Below are positions 27,359 through 39,970 of a stretch of 39,970 nt of DNA, piece after piece. Both the position numbers and the translations under genes were made by a program. Positions within the stretch are counted from its first letter, which is position 1. Each line of letters opens with the position of its first letter. This DNA is from a virus. Under the pieces are notes generated by a model. The model saw only the letters and a program-made list of their open reading frames with translations, was not told the DNA's origin and did not search any database. Location: the UHGV virus genome UHGV-0404708. One strand, 5' to 3'.

Positions 27359-27589
27359 ATGAGCGATAACGGACATTTCGATTTCAAAAAGCACTGGCTT
27401 GCACTTACTCCGGATGAGCGTGAAGCCTTCGCACAGGAAGCCGGAACGACGAGTCACTATATCCAGACTCACTTAACAGGTAAGCGCAAAATGCCAGGTA
27501 AAGTATTGATGAATGGGCTTTTTAAAGCCTGTAAAACAAGACAATGGCTGCGCTCAAAAGCAGAACTGGCATACTTCTTCTACTCATGA
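27359..27589 (+). CDS. Cro/YdaS-like small DNA-binding protein
   Basis: 76 aa, divergent from repressor across tripartite operator; followed by terminator. Confidence 0.6.
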   Translation: MSDNGHFDFKKHWLALTPDEREAFAQEAGTTSHYIQTHLTGKRKMPGKVLMNGLFKACKTRQWLRSKAELAYFFYS

Positions 27590-27610
27590 TATCCAGCTAC
27601 AACCCTCTGT

Positions 27611-27634
27611 AGACCGCCACCCGGCGGTCTTTTC
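27611..27634 (+). terminator. rho-independent terminator (tR1-like)
   Basis: AGACCGCC-ACCC-GGCGGTCT followed by TTTT. Confidence 0.7.
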
Positions 27635-27644
27635 ATATCTATTC

Positions 27645-27659
27645 GTACCTCAAAGGTAA
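27645..27659. promoter_or_regulatory. operator-like palindrome (one mismatch)
   Basis: GTACCTCAAAGGTAA just after the terminator. Confidence 0.4.
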
Positions 27660-27739
27660 TAAAAAACCAAATCTGGTTGATCTTTTTTTTGTGTCAGCAC
27701 AAAATGACCGTAATCCCAATACTAATAACAGGGCTTACC

Positions 27740-27940
27740 ATGGAAATCATTACACGTATTGATGCCGCAAAGCGCGGACTTAAACGCTACTACACCGGAA
27801 AACCATGTAAGCATGGACATGACAGTGAACGCTGGGTTTACAACGGACACTGTGTTGAGTGCACCATGGAATCAAACCGTCGCATCAGGGCAGAGATTAA
27901 GCAGATCATGATTAATTCCTCCCCACAACACTCAAGCTGA
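27740..27940 (+). CDS. small Cys/His-rich protein (possible zinc-binding regulator)
   Basis: Track ORF 27677..27940 (TTG); ATG 27740; CKHGH...CVEC cluster. Confidence 0.45.
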   Translation: MEIITRIDAAKRGLKRYYTGKPCKHGHDSERWVYNGHCVECTMESNRRIRAEIKQIMINSSPQHSS

Positions 27941-27955
27941 TAGCGGAGATTAATC

Positions 27956-28789
27956 ATGAGCAGACATGCAACAGATTGGGCCTGGGAGACAGATCCAGGT
28001 AGCTCATCATTAAAGCTCATACTGCTCTCGATGGCTGACAGAGCCGATGAATATAACCTCTGCTACCCCAGCATAGAACGCCTCGTTAAAGACACTTGCC
28101 TGAATAAAAAAACCGTGCAGGCCGGGCTTATATCGCTCATGAAAATGGGGCTTATTTCAGATACCGGAGAGAGAAAGGGAGCGACAAAAAGAGTGCGGGT
28201 TTTCTCTCTTAATATAACCAAAAACGGGAACATTAAAGGCAACCTGGAGGGGGGCAATGAACCCGAAAACGGTAATGTTACCGAAAACGGGAATATACCC
28301 AAAAACGGGATGTTGAATGATCCCAAAAACGGGATGTTGAATGATCCCAAAAACGGGATCCAGAACCAGTCATATAACCAGTCATTTAACCAAGAGAGGG
28401 AGAGCAGGACAAAAACCGGGGATTCTGTTCCTCATGACCCCGGCGCAAACAACGCCGTGATGAATAACTTTGTTCCTCCTGGTTGGCCAGGGCAATTAGG
28501 CAAATTTGTCATGCATGAACAATGGCAGCCATCAGATGACTTTCTTCGGAAAAGCTCATTGCAGGGAATCTACCTGGACAGTCTGCCAACGGCACAGGAA
28601 CTTGCAGAGTTCAGAATTTACTGGATGGCTGAGGGTAAGGCATACCATCAGGCACAGTGGGAGCAGAAGCTGGCAAGGCGCATCCAGTTCTGTAGACAGA
28701 AATCAGGTGAAGTCAGAAAGAGCCTTGACTGGCATAACACTGACTGGATAGATGAGGTGTGGGATGAAATCAACTCCAGAACTTCTTAA
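27956..28789 (+). CDS. replication initiator/replisome organizer (O-like) with internal iteron-encoded repeats
   Basis: 277 aa; N-terminal HTH-like region; central tandem PKNGMLND repeats; C-terminal F..WQP-type segment; directly precedes P-like gene. Confidence 0.6.
   Translation: MSRHATDWAWETDPGSSSLKLILLSMADRADEYNLCYPSIERLVKDTCLNKKTVQAGLISLMKMGLISDTGERKGATKRVRVFSLNITKNGNIKGNLEGGNEPENGNVTENGNIPKNGMLNDPKNGMLNDPKNGIQNQSYNQSFNQERESRTKTGDSVPHDPGANNAVMNNFVPPGWPGQLGKFVMHEQWQPSDDFLRKSSLQGIYLDSLPTAQELAEFRIYWMAEGKAYHQAQWEQKLARRIQFCRQKSGEVRKSLDWHNTDWIDEVWDEINSRTS
28217..28360. repeat. iteron array (candidate origin of replication) inside initiator gene
   Basis: Six copies of AAAACGG(G/T) core starting 28221, 28266, 28284, 28302, 28326, 28350 (spacings 45, 18, 18, 24, 24), two forming an exact 24-bp tandem. 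Confidence 0.55.
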
Positions 28790-29546
28790 TGAGTACGATC
28801 GCTTTCGTGGTGGGCATGACCACTCGACGGCGGTTGCTTCTGCTGACGATGAAAGGGCAAAGAAGGAGCAGGTTGCAAGAATTTTCAACGAAATGTTTGT
28901 CCAGTTACAGGCTGCATTTCCAGGCAGCATCGCTGCTATCAGCGAGCAAGGAAAGCTAAACGAATTTCGAAAACAATGGATTCTTGCGTTTCTGGAGAAT
29001 GGGATCACAACAATGGAACAGGTTAACGCTGGTATGCGCCACGCCCGCGCCAGTGAATCTCCGTTCTGGCCGTCGCCAGGGCAATTCATCAAGTGGTGTA
29101 AAGACAGCAAGATGGTTCTTGGCGTCACCATTGACGATGTGATGGCGGAGTTTCACCGGTACAGCAAGGAAAAAAGTTTATATCCTGGTGGTCCAGAAAG
29201 ATTCCCGTGGCGACATCCGGTTATGTACTGGGTTGTATGTGATACCCGCCGCGCAATGTATCAGCGCCAGCTTAGCGAGATTGAGGTTGAGAAACACGCG
29301 CGCAGGCTGCTCGATGATTGGGCTAAAAAGGTGGCTTCCGGACAGCAGATACCCGATCCGGTGATCAGCATACAGGCAAAGCCAGAGCCCATGAGTACAC
29401 CTCCGGACACAGGGAGAGACGTTTACCATCCACCAGGGCGAAGTTTCGGGTGCATGCCTAACGCCGCCACCCTCGGGGGAATAACACCGGCGCAGTGGCT
29501 GATGGAGGAATACAGGCGGGGAAAGGCGGCAGGATTTATCAAGTAA
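28764..29546 (+). CDS. replication protein P-like (helicase loader)
   Basis: Track ORF 28752..29546; ATG 28764; central block WILAFLENGITTMEQVNAGMRHAR...SPGQFIKWC closely matches the lambda P pattern as I recall it. Confidence 0.75.
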   Translation: MKSTPELLNEYDRFRGGHDHSTAVASADDERAKKEQVARIFNEMFVQLQAAFPGSIAAISEQGKLNEFRKQWILAFLENGITTMEQVNAGMRHARASESPFWPSPGQFIKWCKDSKMVLGVTIDDVMAEFHRYSKEKSLYPGGPERFPWRHPVMYWVVCDTRRAMYQRQLSEIEVEKHARRLLDDWAKKVASGQQIPDPVISIQAKPEPMSTPPDTGRDVYHPPGRSFGCMPNAATLGGITPAQWLMEEYRRGKAAGFIK

Positions 29547-29583
29547 TACCAGCGCGATAGCGCATTTTTTTACGCCTCAACAA

Positions 29584-29598
29584 TTACCTATAAGGTAA
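29584..29598. promoter_or_regulatory. operator-like palindrome
   Basis: TTACCTATAAGGTAA exact. Confidence 0.5.
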
Positions 29599-29645
29599 CA
29601 AAATATTCTAAACTCTATTGATTTCGTGTCTTATGTGGTTTTTAA

Positions 29646-34590: not shown

Positions 34591-36062
34591 CAGATACAGT
34601 GTTATCTCCTGAAGAGCAGTTGATCGAGGATATTGCAGGGTTTACTCACGATCCGCTTGGTTATGCCATCTATGCGTTCCCGTGGGGGGAAGAGGGGACT
34701 GAACTGGCACATGCTACTGGCCCACGTCAGTGGCAGGCTGATGCGTTCCGAGAGATACGTGATCACCTGCAGAATCCAGAGACGCGCTATCAGCCGCTTA
34801 TGCTGGCACGCGCTTCTGGTCACGGTATTGGTAAATCCGCATTCATTTCAATGCTGATCAACTGGGGCATGTCCACTTGCGAGGATTGTAAGGTCGTGGT
34901 GACCGCCAACACCGACAACCAGCTACGAACGAAGACCTGGCCGGAAATTATCAAGTGGTCGAACCTTGCTATCACGAAAGACTGGTTTACCTGTACCGCT
35001 ACCGCGATGTACAGCAATGACCCTGGGCACGACAAGCGGTGGCGAGCTGACGCAATCCCCTGGTCTGAGCACAACACTGAGGCATTCGCCGGACTACACA
35101 ACGAGCGCAAACGCATCATCGTGGTATTCGATGAAGCGTCGAACATTGCGGATCTGGTGTGGGAAGTTGCTGAGGGGGCGCTTACGGACGAAGACACTGA
35201 GATTATCTGGGTGGCGTTCGGAAACCCTACACGTAACACCGGACGTTTCCGCGAATGTTTCCGCAAATATAAACACCGCTGGAAAACTGCGCAGATTGAC
35301 AGCCGAACGGTGGAAGGCACTAACAAACAGCAGTTGCAGAAATGGGTTGATGACTACGGGGAAGACAGCGACTTCGTTAAAATCCGTGTGCGCGGCATAT
35401 TCCCTGATGCATCTGAATTGCAGTTTATCCCTACCGGTCTTACTGATGAGGCAATGAAACGGGTGGTAACCGCTGCGCAGGTGGCGCATGCTCCGGTGAT
35501 AATCGGCGTTGACCCGGCATACTCCGGCGTTGATGACGCTGTGATATACCTGCGGCAGGGGCTGCACAGTAAGGTGCTATGGACTGGCAACAAGACCACT
35601 GACGATCTGATTATGGCGAAGCGTATCGCTGACTTTGAAGACCAGTACCAGGCTGACGCGGTGTTCATCGACTTCGGTTACGGAACCGGTCTGAAGTCAA
35701 TCGGTGACGGATGGGGTCGTACATGGCAACTTGTTCCGTTCGGTGGCGCGTCTACTGACCCGCAGATGCTCAACAAGCGTGGGGAGATGTTCAATTCATG
35801 CAAGACATGGCTGAGGCTGGGCGGCATGCTGGATGACCAGGAAACAGCAGACGACCTGTCGGCGGCAGAGTACAAAGTTCGAGTGGATGGTAAAATCGTT
35901 ATCGAACCGAAGGAAGATATCAAGGAGCGGCTTGGGCGTTCGCCGGGTAAAGGCGATGCGCTACTGCTGACGTTTGCGTTCCCTGTGTCTAAGCGTCTGC
36001 GAATTCCCGGGCAGCAGAACCAGCAAGGCAAGGCCATCACAGATTACGATCCCTATGCTTAA
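34587..36062 (+). CDS. terL: terminase large subunit
   Basis: 491 aa, GTG start overlapping terS stop; Walker A-like GHGIGKS; nuclease-type C-terminal half. Confidence 0.9.
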   Translation: MTDTVLSPEEQLIEDIAGFTHDPLGYAIYAFPWGEEGTELAHATGPRQWQADAFREIRDHLQNPETRYQPLMLARASGHGIGKSAFISMLINWGMSTCEDCKVVVTANTDNQLRTKTWPEIIKWSNLAITKDWFTCTATAMYSNDPGHDKRWRADAIPWSEHNTEAFAGLHNERKRIIVVFDEASNIADLVWEVAEGALTDEDTEIIWVAFGNPTRNTGRFRECFRKYKHRWKTAQIDSRTVEGTNKQQLQKWVDDYGEDSDFVKIRVRGIFPDASELQFIPTGLTDEAMKRVVTAAQVAHAPVIIGVDPAYSGVDDAVIYLRQGLHSKVLWTGNKTTDDLIMAKRIADFEDQYQADAVFIDFGYGTGLKSIGDGWGRTWQLVPFGGASTDPQMLNKRGEMFNSCKTWLRLGGMLDDQETADDLSAAEYKVRVDGKIVIEPKEDIKERLGRSPGKGDALLLTFAFPVSKRLRIPGQQNQQGKAITDYDPYA

Positions 36063-37447: not shown

Positions 37448-39127
37448 ATGGCGGAAACAACTAAAGAGCGATTGAACAAACAGTTCGCACAACTTGAAAG
37501 CGAGCGTCAGTCGTTCGAGCCGCACTGGCGCGAGTTGAGTGATTACATCAACCCGCGTGGTTCCCGCTTTCTGACTTCTGAGGTCAACCGTAACGATCGA
37601 CGCAATACACGCATTATTGATTCGACCGGGACTATGGCGGCGCGCACTCTCGCCAGCGGCATGATGTCAGGCATCACAAGCCCCGCGCGTCCGTGGTTTC
37701 GCCTGGCTACGCCAGATCCTGAAATGATGGATTATGGCCCTGTTAAGTTGTGGCTTGAGGCGGTGCAGAACCGCATGAACGATATGTTCAATAAGTCGAA
37801 TCTCTACCAGTCGCTGCCGCAGTTATACGGAAGCCTCGGCACATACAGCACTGGTGCAATGGCGGTGCTGGAGGATGACGAGGACATCATTCGCACAATG
37901 CCATTCCCGATAGGCAGTTACTACCTGGCTAACTCACCTCGTGGCAGTGTTGACACCTGTTTTCGCAAGTTCTCTATGACTGTTCGTCAGCTTGTTCAGG
38001 AGTTCGGGCTAAATAACGTCAGCGAATACGTAAAAAGCATGTGGGAAAGCGGCACCTACGAGAAGTGGATCGAAGTGATGCATTCGGTTTACCCGAACAT
38101 TGACCGCGATACATCGAAGCTGGATAGCAAGAACAAGCCATTCAAATCGGTTTATTACGAGGTTGGCGGCGATAACGACAAGTTGTTGCGTGAGTCCGGA
38201 TTCGATGAGTTTCCAATTATGGCTCCGCGCTGGGAAGTTAACGGCGAGGATGTTTATGGATCATCATGCCCGGGTATGCTGGCGCTTGGACCTGTTAAGG
38301 CATTGCAGCTTCTCCAGAAGCGCAAGTCGCAGTTGATTGATAAAGCCACCAATCCGCCGATGGTTGCTCCGACTTCCCTCAAGAATCAGCGCGCCTCCCT
38401 TCTTCCTGGCGACATCACGTATATCGATCAGATTACTGGTCAGGATGGTTTCAGGCCTGCTTATCTGGTTAACCCCAGTACAGCAGATCTGGTAGCAGAC
38501 ATTCAGGACACCCGCCAAATCATTAACAGCGCCTACTTTGTCGATCTGTTCATGATGTTGCAGAACATCAATACCCGCTCGATGCCTGTTGAAGCAGTGA
38601 TCGAAATGAAAGAAGAAAAACTTCTGATGTTGGGGCCGGTTCTGGAGCGTCTGAACGACGAATGTCTTAATCCTCTCATTGACCGCGCTTTCTCGATGAT
38701 GGTGCGTAAAAACATGTTGCCGCCACCGCCTGACGCGATGGAAGGTATGCCACTGAAGGTCGAATACATTTCCGTCATGGCTCAGGCGCAGAAGTCTATC
38801 GGCTTGTCCAGTTTGGCGTCCACGGTCAACTTCATTGGTCAACTTGCGCAAGCGAAACCAGAAGCTCTCGACAAACTCAATGTTGATCAGGCGATTGATG
38901 CATTCGCTGATATGTCCGGAGTGTCTCCAACCGTCATTGTTCCGCAGGAACAGGTTGAGCAGGCACGCCAGCAACGGGCACAGCAGCAACAGCAGCAACA
39001 AATGATGGCGATGGGGATGGCGGCGGCACAGGGCGCCAAGACGCTAAGCGAAGCTAAAACTTCGGATCCGAGTGTGTTGTCAGCTATGGCGAATGCAGTT
39101 AGTGGTCAGGGTGGGCAATCACAATGA
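37448..39127 (+). CDS. portal (head-to-tail connector) protein, T7 gp8-like
   Basis: 559 aa; Gln-rich, Met/Ala-rich C-terminal tail as in T7-type connectors; followed by small ORF and scaffold. Confidence 0.8.
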   Translation: MAETTKERLNKQFAQLESERQSFEPHWRELSDYINPRGSRFLTSEVNRNDRRNTRIIDSTGTMAARTLASGMMSGITSPARPWFRLATPDPEMMDYGPVKLWLEAVQNRMNDMFNKSNLYQSLPQLYGSLGTYSTGAMAVLEDDEDIIRTMPFPIGSYYLANSPRGSVDTCFRKFSMTVRQLVQEFGLNNVSEYVKSMWESGTYEKWIEVMHSVYPNIDRDTSKLDSKNKPFKSVYYEVGGDNDKLLRESGFDEFPIMAPRWEVNGEDVYGSSCPGMLALGPVKALQLLQKRKSQLIDKATNPPMVAPTSLKNQRASLLPGDITYIDQITGQDGFRPAYLVNPSTADLVADIQDTRQIINSAYFVDLFMMLQNINTRSMPVEAVIEMKEEKLLMLGPVLERLNDECLNPLIDRAFSMMVRKNMLPPPPDAMEGMPLKVEYISVMAQAQKSIGLSSLASTVNFIGQLAQAKPEALDKLNVDQAIDAFADMSGVSPTVIVPQEQVEQARQQRAQQQQQQQMMAMGMAAAQGAKTLSEAKTSDPSVLSAMANAVSGQGGQSQ

Positions 39128-39422: not shown

Positions 39423-39970
39423 ATGAATTTATTTGAGCGTTTGCTGTATCGCCGTCTTTGCAATGAGCAACCAGTCGATGGTGGAGCAGCTCCAGCTGCG
39501 TCAGAACCGTCAGCGCCTGCAGGTGATAACCCTGCTCCAGTTGGTGATCCATCACAACAGGAAGGTGATAAGCCACAACCTGTTGCTGATGGCGATAAAC
39601 CTGCTGATGACAAAAAGCCTGAAAACGATAAGCAGGGTGAAAAAAAGGACGGCGATAAACCAGAGGGTGCGCCTGAGAAGTACGAGTTTCAGGCTGCCGA
39701 AGGCGTAGAGCTGGATACAGAAGCGTTGAAGGAATTCGAGCCGGTGGCGCGAGAACTTAACCTGACCAACGAGCAAGCGCAAAAGCTGGTTGATGCTTAT
39801 CCGAAGATTCTGGCAGGTGTTCAGCAGCGCCAGGCAGAAGCCTGGCAGAAAACAACCGAGCAGTGGGCTGCGGATGTAAAAGCTGACAAAGAAATCGGTG
39901 GCGACAAGTTGATTTCTAACCTTAGCGCCGCACAGCGTGCGCTTGACCAGTTCGGGACACCTGAACTCAA
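39423..39970 (+). CDS. scaffolding protein, 5' portion (ORF runs off window end)
   Basis: ATG 39423; 182 codons without stop to window end; acidic Asp/Glu/Lys/Pro-rich low-complexity N-terminus; in frame with 1..148. Confidence 0.6.
   Translation, partial: MNLFERLLYRRLCNEQPVDGGAAPAASEPSAPAGDNPAPVGDPSQQEGDKPQPVADGDKPADDKKPENDKQGEKKDGDKPEGAPEKYEFQAAEGVELDTEALKEFEPVARELNLTNEQAQKLVDAYPKILAGVQQRQAEAWQKTTEQWAADVKADKEIGGDKLISNLSAAQRALDQFGTPEL

Follow-up and report, generated by a model that had tools for sequence, protein, structure and literature searches.

We analyzed the 39,970-nucleotide viral genome UHGV-0404708 (the whole stretch is referred to below as the window) and found, inside the gene for its replication initiator, an array of short repeats (28210-28360) that is best explained as the iterons of the phage replication origin, embedded in the part of the gene encoding the interdomain linker. 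We put the probability of this reading at about 0.7; that the repeats are functional DNA sites for the initiator is a narrower claim, in which our confidence is higher. An earlier sequence-only reading of the window had proposed lambda-type iterons in an initiator linker as a candidate origin, and this is the best-supported reading in light of the identity of the gene, the adjoining P-type loader gene, the repeats in 80 homologous loci and the covariation of repeat and protein. The candidate is a further example of a known design, the lambda-type intragenic origin; as such it is well supported and unsurprising. It departs from the ori-lambda design in three respects: the N-domain is of the HTH_36 family, the C-domain resembles that of DnaT, and phased GAAYC repeats stand where lambda has its AT-rich tract.

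RESULTS

Identity of the phage and of its replication genes

About 83% of the stretch from 27600 to 29600 aligns with phiV10, phiv142-3 and PAS61, at 97 to 98% nucleotide identity, and the genes of the window follow the order of the phiV10 annotation. These comparisons place the window among the phiV10/epsilon15-like (Uetakevirus) phages or prophages of E. coli. The gene carrying the repeats (27956-28789, plus strand) encodes a 277-aa protein identified as a replication initiator by Pfam, phrog_1032 and PDB matches; its best overall match is phrog_1032, "replication initiation protein" (E 5e-101). The protein begins with an HTH_36 winged-helix domain (aa 18-67, nt 28007-28156, plus strand; Pfam E 2e-10) and ends with a DnaT-like single-stranded-DNA-binding (ssDNA-binding) domain (aa 181-253, about nt 28496-28714, plus strand), which is matched by Pfam DnaT over aa 184-250 (E 1e-14) and, over aa 181-253, by the PDB entries for the DnaT C-domain, 4ou6/6aep (E 4e-19). 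The iteron array lies between the two, past the DNA-binding N-terminal domain and ahead of the C-terminal one: the repeat-encoding linker spans about aa 86-180 on the plus strand, with the array itself at aa 86-135. Directly downstream, and overlapping the 3' end of the initiator gene, is a gene for a helicase loader of the lambda P family (28764-29546, plus strand, with an alternative ATG at 28752; Pfam Phage_lambda_P, PF06992, E 1e-53; phrog_109, "P-like helicase loader," E 4.5e-88).

The sequence-only reading had called the initiator "O-like." This is correct with respect to architecture and position, whereas the Pfam family is a different one (HTH_36 plus a DnaT C-domain, not Phage_rep_O). 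The window initiator and lambda O both match phrog_678 and phrog_345 through their N-terminal parts, and Brezellec et al. (2017, PMC5509034), using HHpred, reported HTH_36 in lambda O. However, direct hhalign comparison of the N-domain with lambda O gave a probability of 6.7%, which is too weak for a claim of homology. Single-sequence AlphaFold2 modeling of the initiator returned a mean pLDDT of 38.9, too low to tell whether the linker is disordered.

The initiator gene was found in 536 of 5,426 complete E. coli genomes (about 10%), where the encoded proteins range from 271 to 311 aa because the number of repeat units differs. In public records it goes by "primosomal protein I," "primosomal protein," "DnaT," or "DnaT-like ssDNA-binding domain-containing protein." We considered and rejected the identity of the 277-aa protein as a full-length DnaT; the resemblance to DnaT is confined to aa 181-253, and the N-terminal two-thirds of the protein consist of an initiator-type HTH and linker. 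The public "primosomal protein I/DnaT" label is misleading and is here corrected to replication initiator.

Upstream (5') of the initiator gene, a minus-strand gene for a repressor with two HTH motifs is accompanied by a gene for a small regulator, by a terminator, and by an ORF of 66 aa. The initiator belongs to the early rightward gene block, past the repressor region. The terminator is a strong intrinsic one (27611-27630; 8-bp stem with 6 G-C pairs and a T-rich tail), is annotated in phiV10 as well, and separates the 76-aa regulator gene (27359-27589) from the replication genes; antitermination or read-through would therefore be needed both for expression of the replication genes and for transcription across the candidate origin. 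The 66-aa ORF (27740-27937), directly upstream of the initiator gene, encodes a Cys/His-rich protein that is kept in phiV10 (p42) and epsilon15. It belongs to phrog_1081 (unknown function) and bears a faint similarity to the endonuclease VII family.

Megablast aligned the region with its relatives in two pieces, and we rejected the notion that the break marks a divergent repeat region: the gap is a block (28702-28973) that has been swapped relative to phiV10 and that covers the C-terminal tail of the initiator together with the first ~70 aa of the P-like loader. The DNA on either side of the block is 94 to 98% identical to phiV10. The tail of the window initiator, LDWHNTDWIDEVW, resembles the C terminus of lambda O, LDLTNTDWIYGVDL. 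The joint exchange and the lambda O-like tail suggest that the tail of the initiator and the N terminus of the P protein co-vary as an interaction pair. The 277-aa form of the initiator occurs in 8 of 81 close loci.

The proposed iteron array

The sequence-only reading had reported six AAAACGG(G/T) cores spaced 18 to 45 bp apart, an exact 24-bp tandem duplication among them, and a PKNGMLND peptide repeat encoded by the cores; each of these observations holds. The cores start at 28221, 28266, 28284, 28302, 28326 and 28350, all on the plus strand, with start-to-start spacings of 45, 18, 18, 24 and 24 bp, and in extended form they are six same-strand copies of CC(A/G)AAAACGG (28218-28356). All six share one reading frame of the initiator ORF, and the encoded peptide is PKNGMLNDPKNGMLNDPKNGIQNQSYNQSFNQ. 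Tandem Repeats Finder resolves the array into an 18-bp period (28261-28310; 2.8 copies, 78% matches) and a 24-bp period (28298-28359; 2.6 copies, 100% matches), the latter being the top-scoring tandem repeat of the entire window. Over the whole window, AAAACGG(G/T) matches 10 times against 2.4 expected, a count reached by none of 100 shuffled sequences. A scan of both strands of the 40-kb window with CNRAAAWYGG, the broader form of the core seen across the family, placed 6 of its 7 matches within 28218-28356 and revealed no second cluster of the motif.

With the register set by the family consensus, gAAyAntCCCAAAAACGGgA (about 20 bp), six plus-strand iterons can be delimited. Iteron 1 (TAATATAACCAAAAACGGGA, 28210-28229) is a weaker copy, with ACC replacing CCC. 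It is followed by iteron 2 (CAATGAACCCGAAAACGGTA, 28255-28274) and then, at successive steps of 18 bp, by iteron 3 (TAATGTTACCGAAAACGGGA, 28273-28292) and iteron 4 (GAATATACCCAAAAACGGGA, 28291-28310). Iteron 5 (GAATGATCCCAAAAACGGGA, 28315-28334) has the dyad arms ATCCC/GGGAT and one GATC site, and iteron 6 (GAATGATCCCAAAAACGGGATC, 28339-28360) is a perfect dyad, GATCCC-N6-GGGATC, with two GATC sites; the dyad of the window iterons can be written (G)ATCCC-AAAAAC-GGGAT(C). A degenerate seventh core, CAAAAACCGG, is present at 28410-28419 (plus strand). In phiV10-type relatives the corresponding position is intact (ACAAAAAACGGGG) and lies 63 to 75 bp past iteron 6. Among near-identical phages the number of cores varies from 5 to 9, always by whole units of 18 or 24 bp.

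The GATC (Dam) sites of iterons 5 and 6, at 28319, 28343 and 28357, amount to three in 42 bp, compared with a window average of one per 265 bp. In two relatives, Acinetobacter phage BP10 (L008, 344-799) and Vibrio phage Her (L006, 661-1224), the initiator gene is closely preceded by a gene for a DNA adenine methyltransferase. The GATC cluster and these neighboring genes may mean that the origin is linked to methylation or SeqA. Adjacent iterons also give minus-strand hairpins, in which the right arm of one pairs with the left arm of its neighbor and a TTTTTG run follows (28349-28330 and 28325-28306); our scan classed these hairpins as terminator-like. Their stems, with 6 pairs of which 3 are G-C, are weak. 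The hairpins might impede antisense transcription across the candidate origin or might simply result from the dyads.

DNA 3' of the array

Immediately after the iterons come the short direct repeats that the sequence-only reading had also noted. These are 2.4 tandem 12-mers built on AACCAGTCAT (AACCAGTCATAT/AACCAGTCATTT/AACCA, 28364-28392, plus strand; 12-bp period by Tandem Repeats Finder), and they represent the window version, cAGAACCagtcatatAACCagtcatttAACC (28362-28392), of a family-wide GAAYC element. Within the 42 nt past the last iteron, at least two GAAYC boxes were found in 68 of 78 loci, and three in 49, against a background of 0.07. The boxes are spaced 12 to 13 bp apart, use more than one reading frame in 57 loci, and echo the GAAyA at the left end of the iteron. 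With the 13-bp period of Vibrio phage Her, one and the same DNA element encodes NQSL and then EPVI; because the encoded peptide changes in this way, the GAAYC element, too, is constrained as DNA. We regard the region as a candidate for unwinding or for extension of the initiator complex.

Just beyond the boxes the window has a polypurine tract, AAGAGAGGGAGAGCAGGACAAAAA (28392-28415, plus strand; 22 of 24 purines), that ranks in the top 0.015% of 24-nt segments for the whole sequence. So striking a run is present only in the window and its nearest relative, and its relevance is uncertain because it is not conserved across the family. Across the homologous loci, no conserved AT-rich or purine-rich tract was found past the array. 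In the window the first 40 nt past the array are 57% AT, whereas lambda has a 78%-AT block in this position; the window has the phased AACC/GAAYC repeats there instead. A promoter scan gave matches no more frequently than in shuffled sequence. The sequence-only reading had suggested cumulative GC skew as a check. There is indeed a local minimum near 26 to 28 kb, but it coincides with the switch in transcription direction; because skew follows the direction of transcription, such a minimum is not diagnostic and lends the origin no independent support.

The missing AT-rich tract keeps one alternative serious. The repeats may be genuine initiator sites that serve autoregulation of the initiator/P operon, copy control by handcuffing, or titration, with unwinding taking place elsewhere, for example, in the AT-richer intergenic stretch that lies about 500 bp upstream (about 27630-27740). 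Plasmid iterons do act in control as well as in initiation, and the array has no AT-rich block beside it. However, in the experimentally studied phages of this layout (lambda and the Stx phages, PMC7466680) the intragenic iterons are the origin, and the same has been inferred for P22 and L (PMC8022706). Moreover, the conserved GAAYC boxes, which recur about once per helical turn right after the array in those 68 of 78 loci, are more than a simple operator needs, and the window holds no second motif cluster. We therefore consider a purely regulatory role improbable.

A different possibility starts from the same observation and would set these phages further apart from lambda. HTH_36 phage initiators may use a distinct, undescribed origin design in which the core CCCAAAAACGG is followed by three GAAYC boxes phased at 12 to 13 bp rather than by an AT-rich element. 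The boxes would then be either partial sites, along which the initiator filament reaches into the opening region, or sequence-specific ssDNA sites. If true, this would imply an unwinding mechanism unlike that of lambda's AT-rich tract. We offer the idea tentatively and think it unlikely.

The array and the N-domain in relatives

Searching by N-domain alignment, we gathered two sets of loci. One consists of 80 near-identical viral loci and the other of 80 diverse genomic loci, drawn from Enterobacterales, Vibrio, Pseudoalteromonas, Marinomonas, Acinetobacter, Burkholderiales, Desulfovibrionaceae and Sphingomonadales. The core CCCAAAAACGG is nearly universal, being shared by phages of Alpha- through Gammaproteobacteria. 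Within Acinetobacter, the 31 loci whose N-domain is lengthened by an insertion hold no canonical core and 38 cores of a variant type (CCNAAYAnYGG), and the 8 loci with a short N-domain hold 16 canonical cores and 1 variant. Because core type follows the N-domain subfamily within a single host genus, the iteron sequence tracks the phage protein and not the host. This covariation suggests that the specificity of the iterons is matched to the cognate initiator.

The array always accompanies the HTH_36 N-domain, whatever the C-terminal part of the protein may be. Edwardsiella phage GF-2 (L005, 1501-2343) is a natural chimera that joins a window-type N-domain and array to a C-domain of the lambda O type (phrog_277/2357, ending NTDWIYGVQL); its core, CCCAAAATTGGG, is present in three copies at 24 bp. 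In Vibrio phage Her, the C-part that goes with the window-type N-domain and array is of a third kind.

One might suppose instead that the motif is read by a host DNA-binding protein, or that it acts in the mRNA as a structural or regulatory RNA element. The motif is nearly always on the sense strand, its CCC...GGG could form small hairpins, and the adjacent arms give the minus-strand terminator-like hairpins described above. However, an Rfam scan of the array gave no match, and the RNA fold of the array is unexceptional (z = -1.8; 9 of 200 shuffled sequences fold equally well). A host factor is unlikely because the core covaries with the N-domain within one genus, while the motif is kept from Alpha- to Gammaproteobacteria. 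Reverse-complement copies, which occur in some loci (see below), suit recognition of double-stranded DNA. Taken together, we consider a host or RNA reader very improbable.

Constraint on the DNA rather than on the peptide

Since all six copies in the window share one frame, any argument that the DNA rather than the peptide is under constraint rests on the relatives. In the linkers of the 80 diverse loci, CCN[AG]AAA[AT][CT]GG matches 103 times (3.8 per kb), compared with 0.046 per kb on the same strand outside the linker and zero on the opposite strand, an enrichment of ~80-fold. The linker cores are distributed over frames 0, 1 and 2 as 74, 23 and 6, with more than one frame used in 18 loci; the out-of-frame cores alone (29 in 27 kb of linker, against the 0.046 per kb outside) are about 20-fold enriched. 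Of the adjacent-core spacings, 39/103 are not multiples of 3, and 17-bp-period arrays in some loci walk across all three frames. Depending on the locus, CCCAAAAACGG is read as PKNG (the window and Acinetobacter phage BP10), TQKRD/E (Edwardsiella phage GF-2 and PPompW) or DPKTE (Vibrio phage Her). The homologous ORFs read through to stops at 220 to 350 aa. The use of three frames and the spacings that are not multiples of 3 together show that it is the DNA, and not the peptide, that is constrained. The annotated iterons of lambda, taken as a positive control, behave in the same manner (frames 0, 2, 2 and 1; spacings of 20/24/23 bp).

Iterons in reverse complement, CCCGTTTTTCC, are found among the direct ones in the linkers of three loci, L163 (about 2880-2930), L142 and L133; these copies encode peptides such as VPFFP or SPVFP. 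When 42 distinct close relatives of the same architecture were compared, 2 of 66 core positions proved variable, as against 16 of 149 in the rest of the linker, a weak but suggestive difference.

These data bear directly on another alternative, namely, that the array is a slippage-prone, low-complexity coding linker of PKNG/MLND peptide repeats that has no function at the DNA level. Such a linker would account for six in-frame copies in units that are multiples of 3, for copy number changes by whole units, as slippage would give, and for the 271- to 311-aa range of the E. coli proteins. It is nevertheless essentially refuted: a 10- to 11-nt core is read in three frames to give unrelated peptides, out-of-frame copies are enriched, 17-bp periods and inverted copies occur, and the core covaries with the N-domain subfamily. 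We likewise give almost no credence to the idea that the array is domain-junction DNA kept mainly as a recombination linker for shuffling N- and C-modules between phages, because although chimeras with a junction right past the array do exist (GF-2, for example) and a block swap is seen further downstream in the window (28702-28973), the idea leaves the dyad symmetry, the multiple phased copies and the N-domain covariation unexplained, and module exchange at this junction is in any case expected if an origin must stay with its binding domain.

DISCUSSION

If the array is the phage origin, as we favor, the course of initiation can be sketched by analogy with lambda. The HTH_36 N-domain would bind each site of roughly 20 bp (GAAyAnt-CCC-AAAAAC-GGG-A), as the dyad, the covariation and the lambda O precedent suggest, and it would probably do so as a dimer on the CCC/GGG dyad. 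Between 5 and 9 such sites, 17 to 24 bp apart, could then assemble an O-some-like nucleoprotein complex. The weakest step of the scheme is the next, in which the DNA would open just to the right of the array, at the AACCAGTCAT/GAAYC repeats phased at 12 to 13 bp and, in this phage, the polypurine tract; the DnaT-like ssDNA-binding C-domain may assist in this. Finally, the C-domain and the C-terminal tail would recruit the lambda-P-like loader carrying host DnaB, a role that gene order and the known O-P-DnaB relationships of the lambda family point to.

In lambda, the origin consists of four O-protein iterons and an AT-rich tract, both located midway along gene O, and the P loader gene follows. 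The candidate shares with ori-lambda intragenic direct repeats, each with an internal dyad, between the N- and C-domains of the initiator; the layout of the site (ATCCC..AAAAC..GGGA(T)) and a spacing of about 18 to 24 bp; repeats that ignore the reading frame across the family; and a P-family loader gene immediately 3', in an early rightward block past the repressor. It differs in that the window site is 2 bp shorter and present in 5 to 9 copies rather than lambda's 4, in that the N-domain is HTH_36 whereas lambda O has Phage_rep_O (PF04492), the two being only remotely related, and in that the C-domain is DnaT-like and not that of lambda O. The lambda-type arrangement proposed from the sequence alone is thus borne out for the intragenic dyad repeats, their independence of frame and the P loader, but not for the AT-rich block or the Phage_rep_O N-domain.

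The copy number polymorphism of the array has a parallel. The Stx phages have 6 iterons compared with lambda's 4, and there, too, the intragenic iterons are the origin (PMC7466680). Intragenic repeat origins have been inferred in gene 18 of P22 and gene 18 of phage L, and each lambdoid initiator type is taken to carry its own iterons within the coding region, a principle established in lambda and extended by inference to P22 and L (PMC8022706). The window shares with the P22, L and Stx origins an iteron set of its own inside the initiator coding region, the number of which varies between relatives. In contrast, the iteron of phage L has another sequence (TGTCCAACGGA), the initiators of P22 and L are paired with a DnaB-type helicase gene and not a P-type loader, and those Stx phage O proteins that have been studied are closely related to that of lambda.

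The domesticated bacterial proteins DopC and DopE offer a natural negative control. Like the window genes, they comprise a protein with HTH_36 and a DnaT C-terminal motif followed by a homologue of replication protein P, but they are chromosomal, and the authors found no iterons in dopC (PMC5509034), whereas the window gene resides in a phiV10-like phage genome and carries the array. A contrast between phage gene and dopC is what would be expected if the array is the phage origin.

In iteron plasmids such as RK2, F and pPS10, a winged-helix Rep protein binds direct repeats beside an unwinding element with 13-mers. The window resembles them in its winged-helix initiator, its same-orientation repeats of 17 to 24 bp and the adjacent short repeats of ~12 to 13 bp. 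However, plasmid iterons are normally intergenic and plasmid unwinding elements are AT-rich, whereas the repeats of the window all lie in a coding linker and are not AT-rich. We found no published description of a phiV10 or epsilon15 origin or of an HTH_36 iteron family, in searches that cover the older phage literature thinly; a literal search of the literature for the iteron sequence returned nothing relevant, and the searchable literature yielded no binding, unwinding or replication results for this iteron and initiator family.

Although the candidate leaves the understanding of phage replication unchanged, it gives the phiV10/epsilon15-like (Uetakevirus) phages a concrete, testable proposal for their origin. 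phiV10 serves as a reporter and engineering chassis for O157:H7. The family-wide iteron consensus and the second conserved repeat could guide origin annotation in hundreds of phages, among them those of Enterobacterales, Vibrio and Acinetobacter, and the array is a clean case of a DNA-binding code overlaid on a coding linker.

Three other tandem repeats were detected in the window. The first (35245-35268) has a 12-bp unit in 2 copies, the second (38962-39000) has units of 15 and 9 bp, and the third (39584-39621) has an 18-bp unit, TGCTGATGACAAAAAACC, in 2.1 copies.
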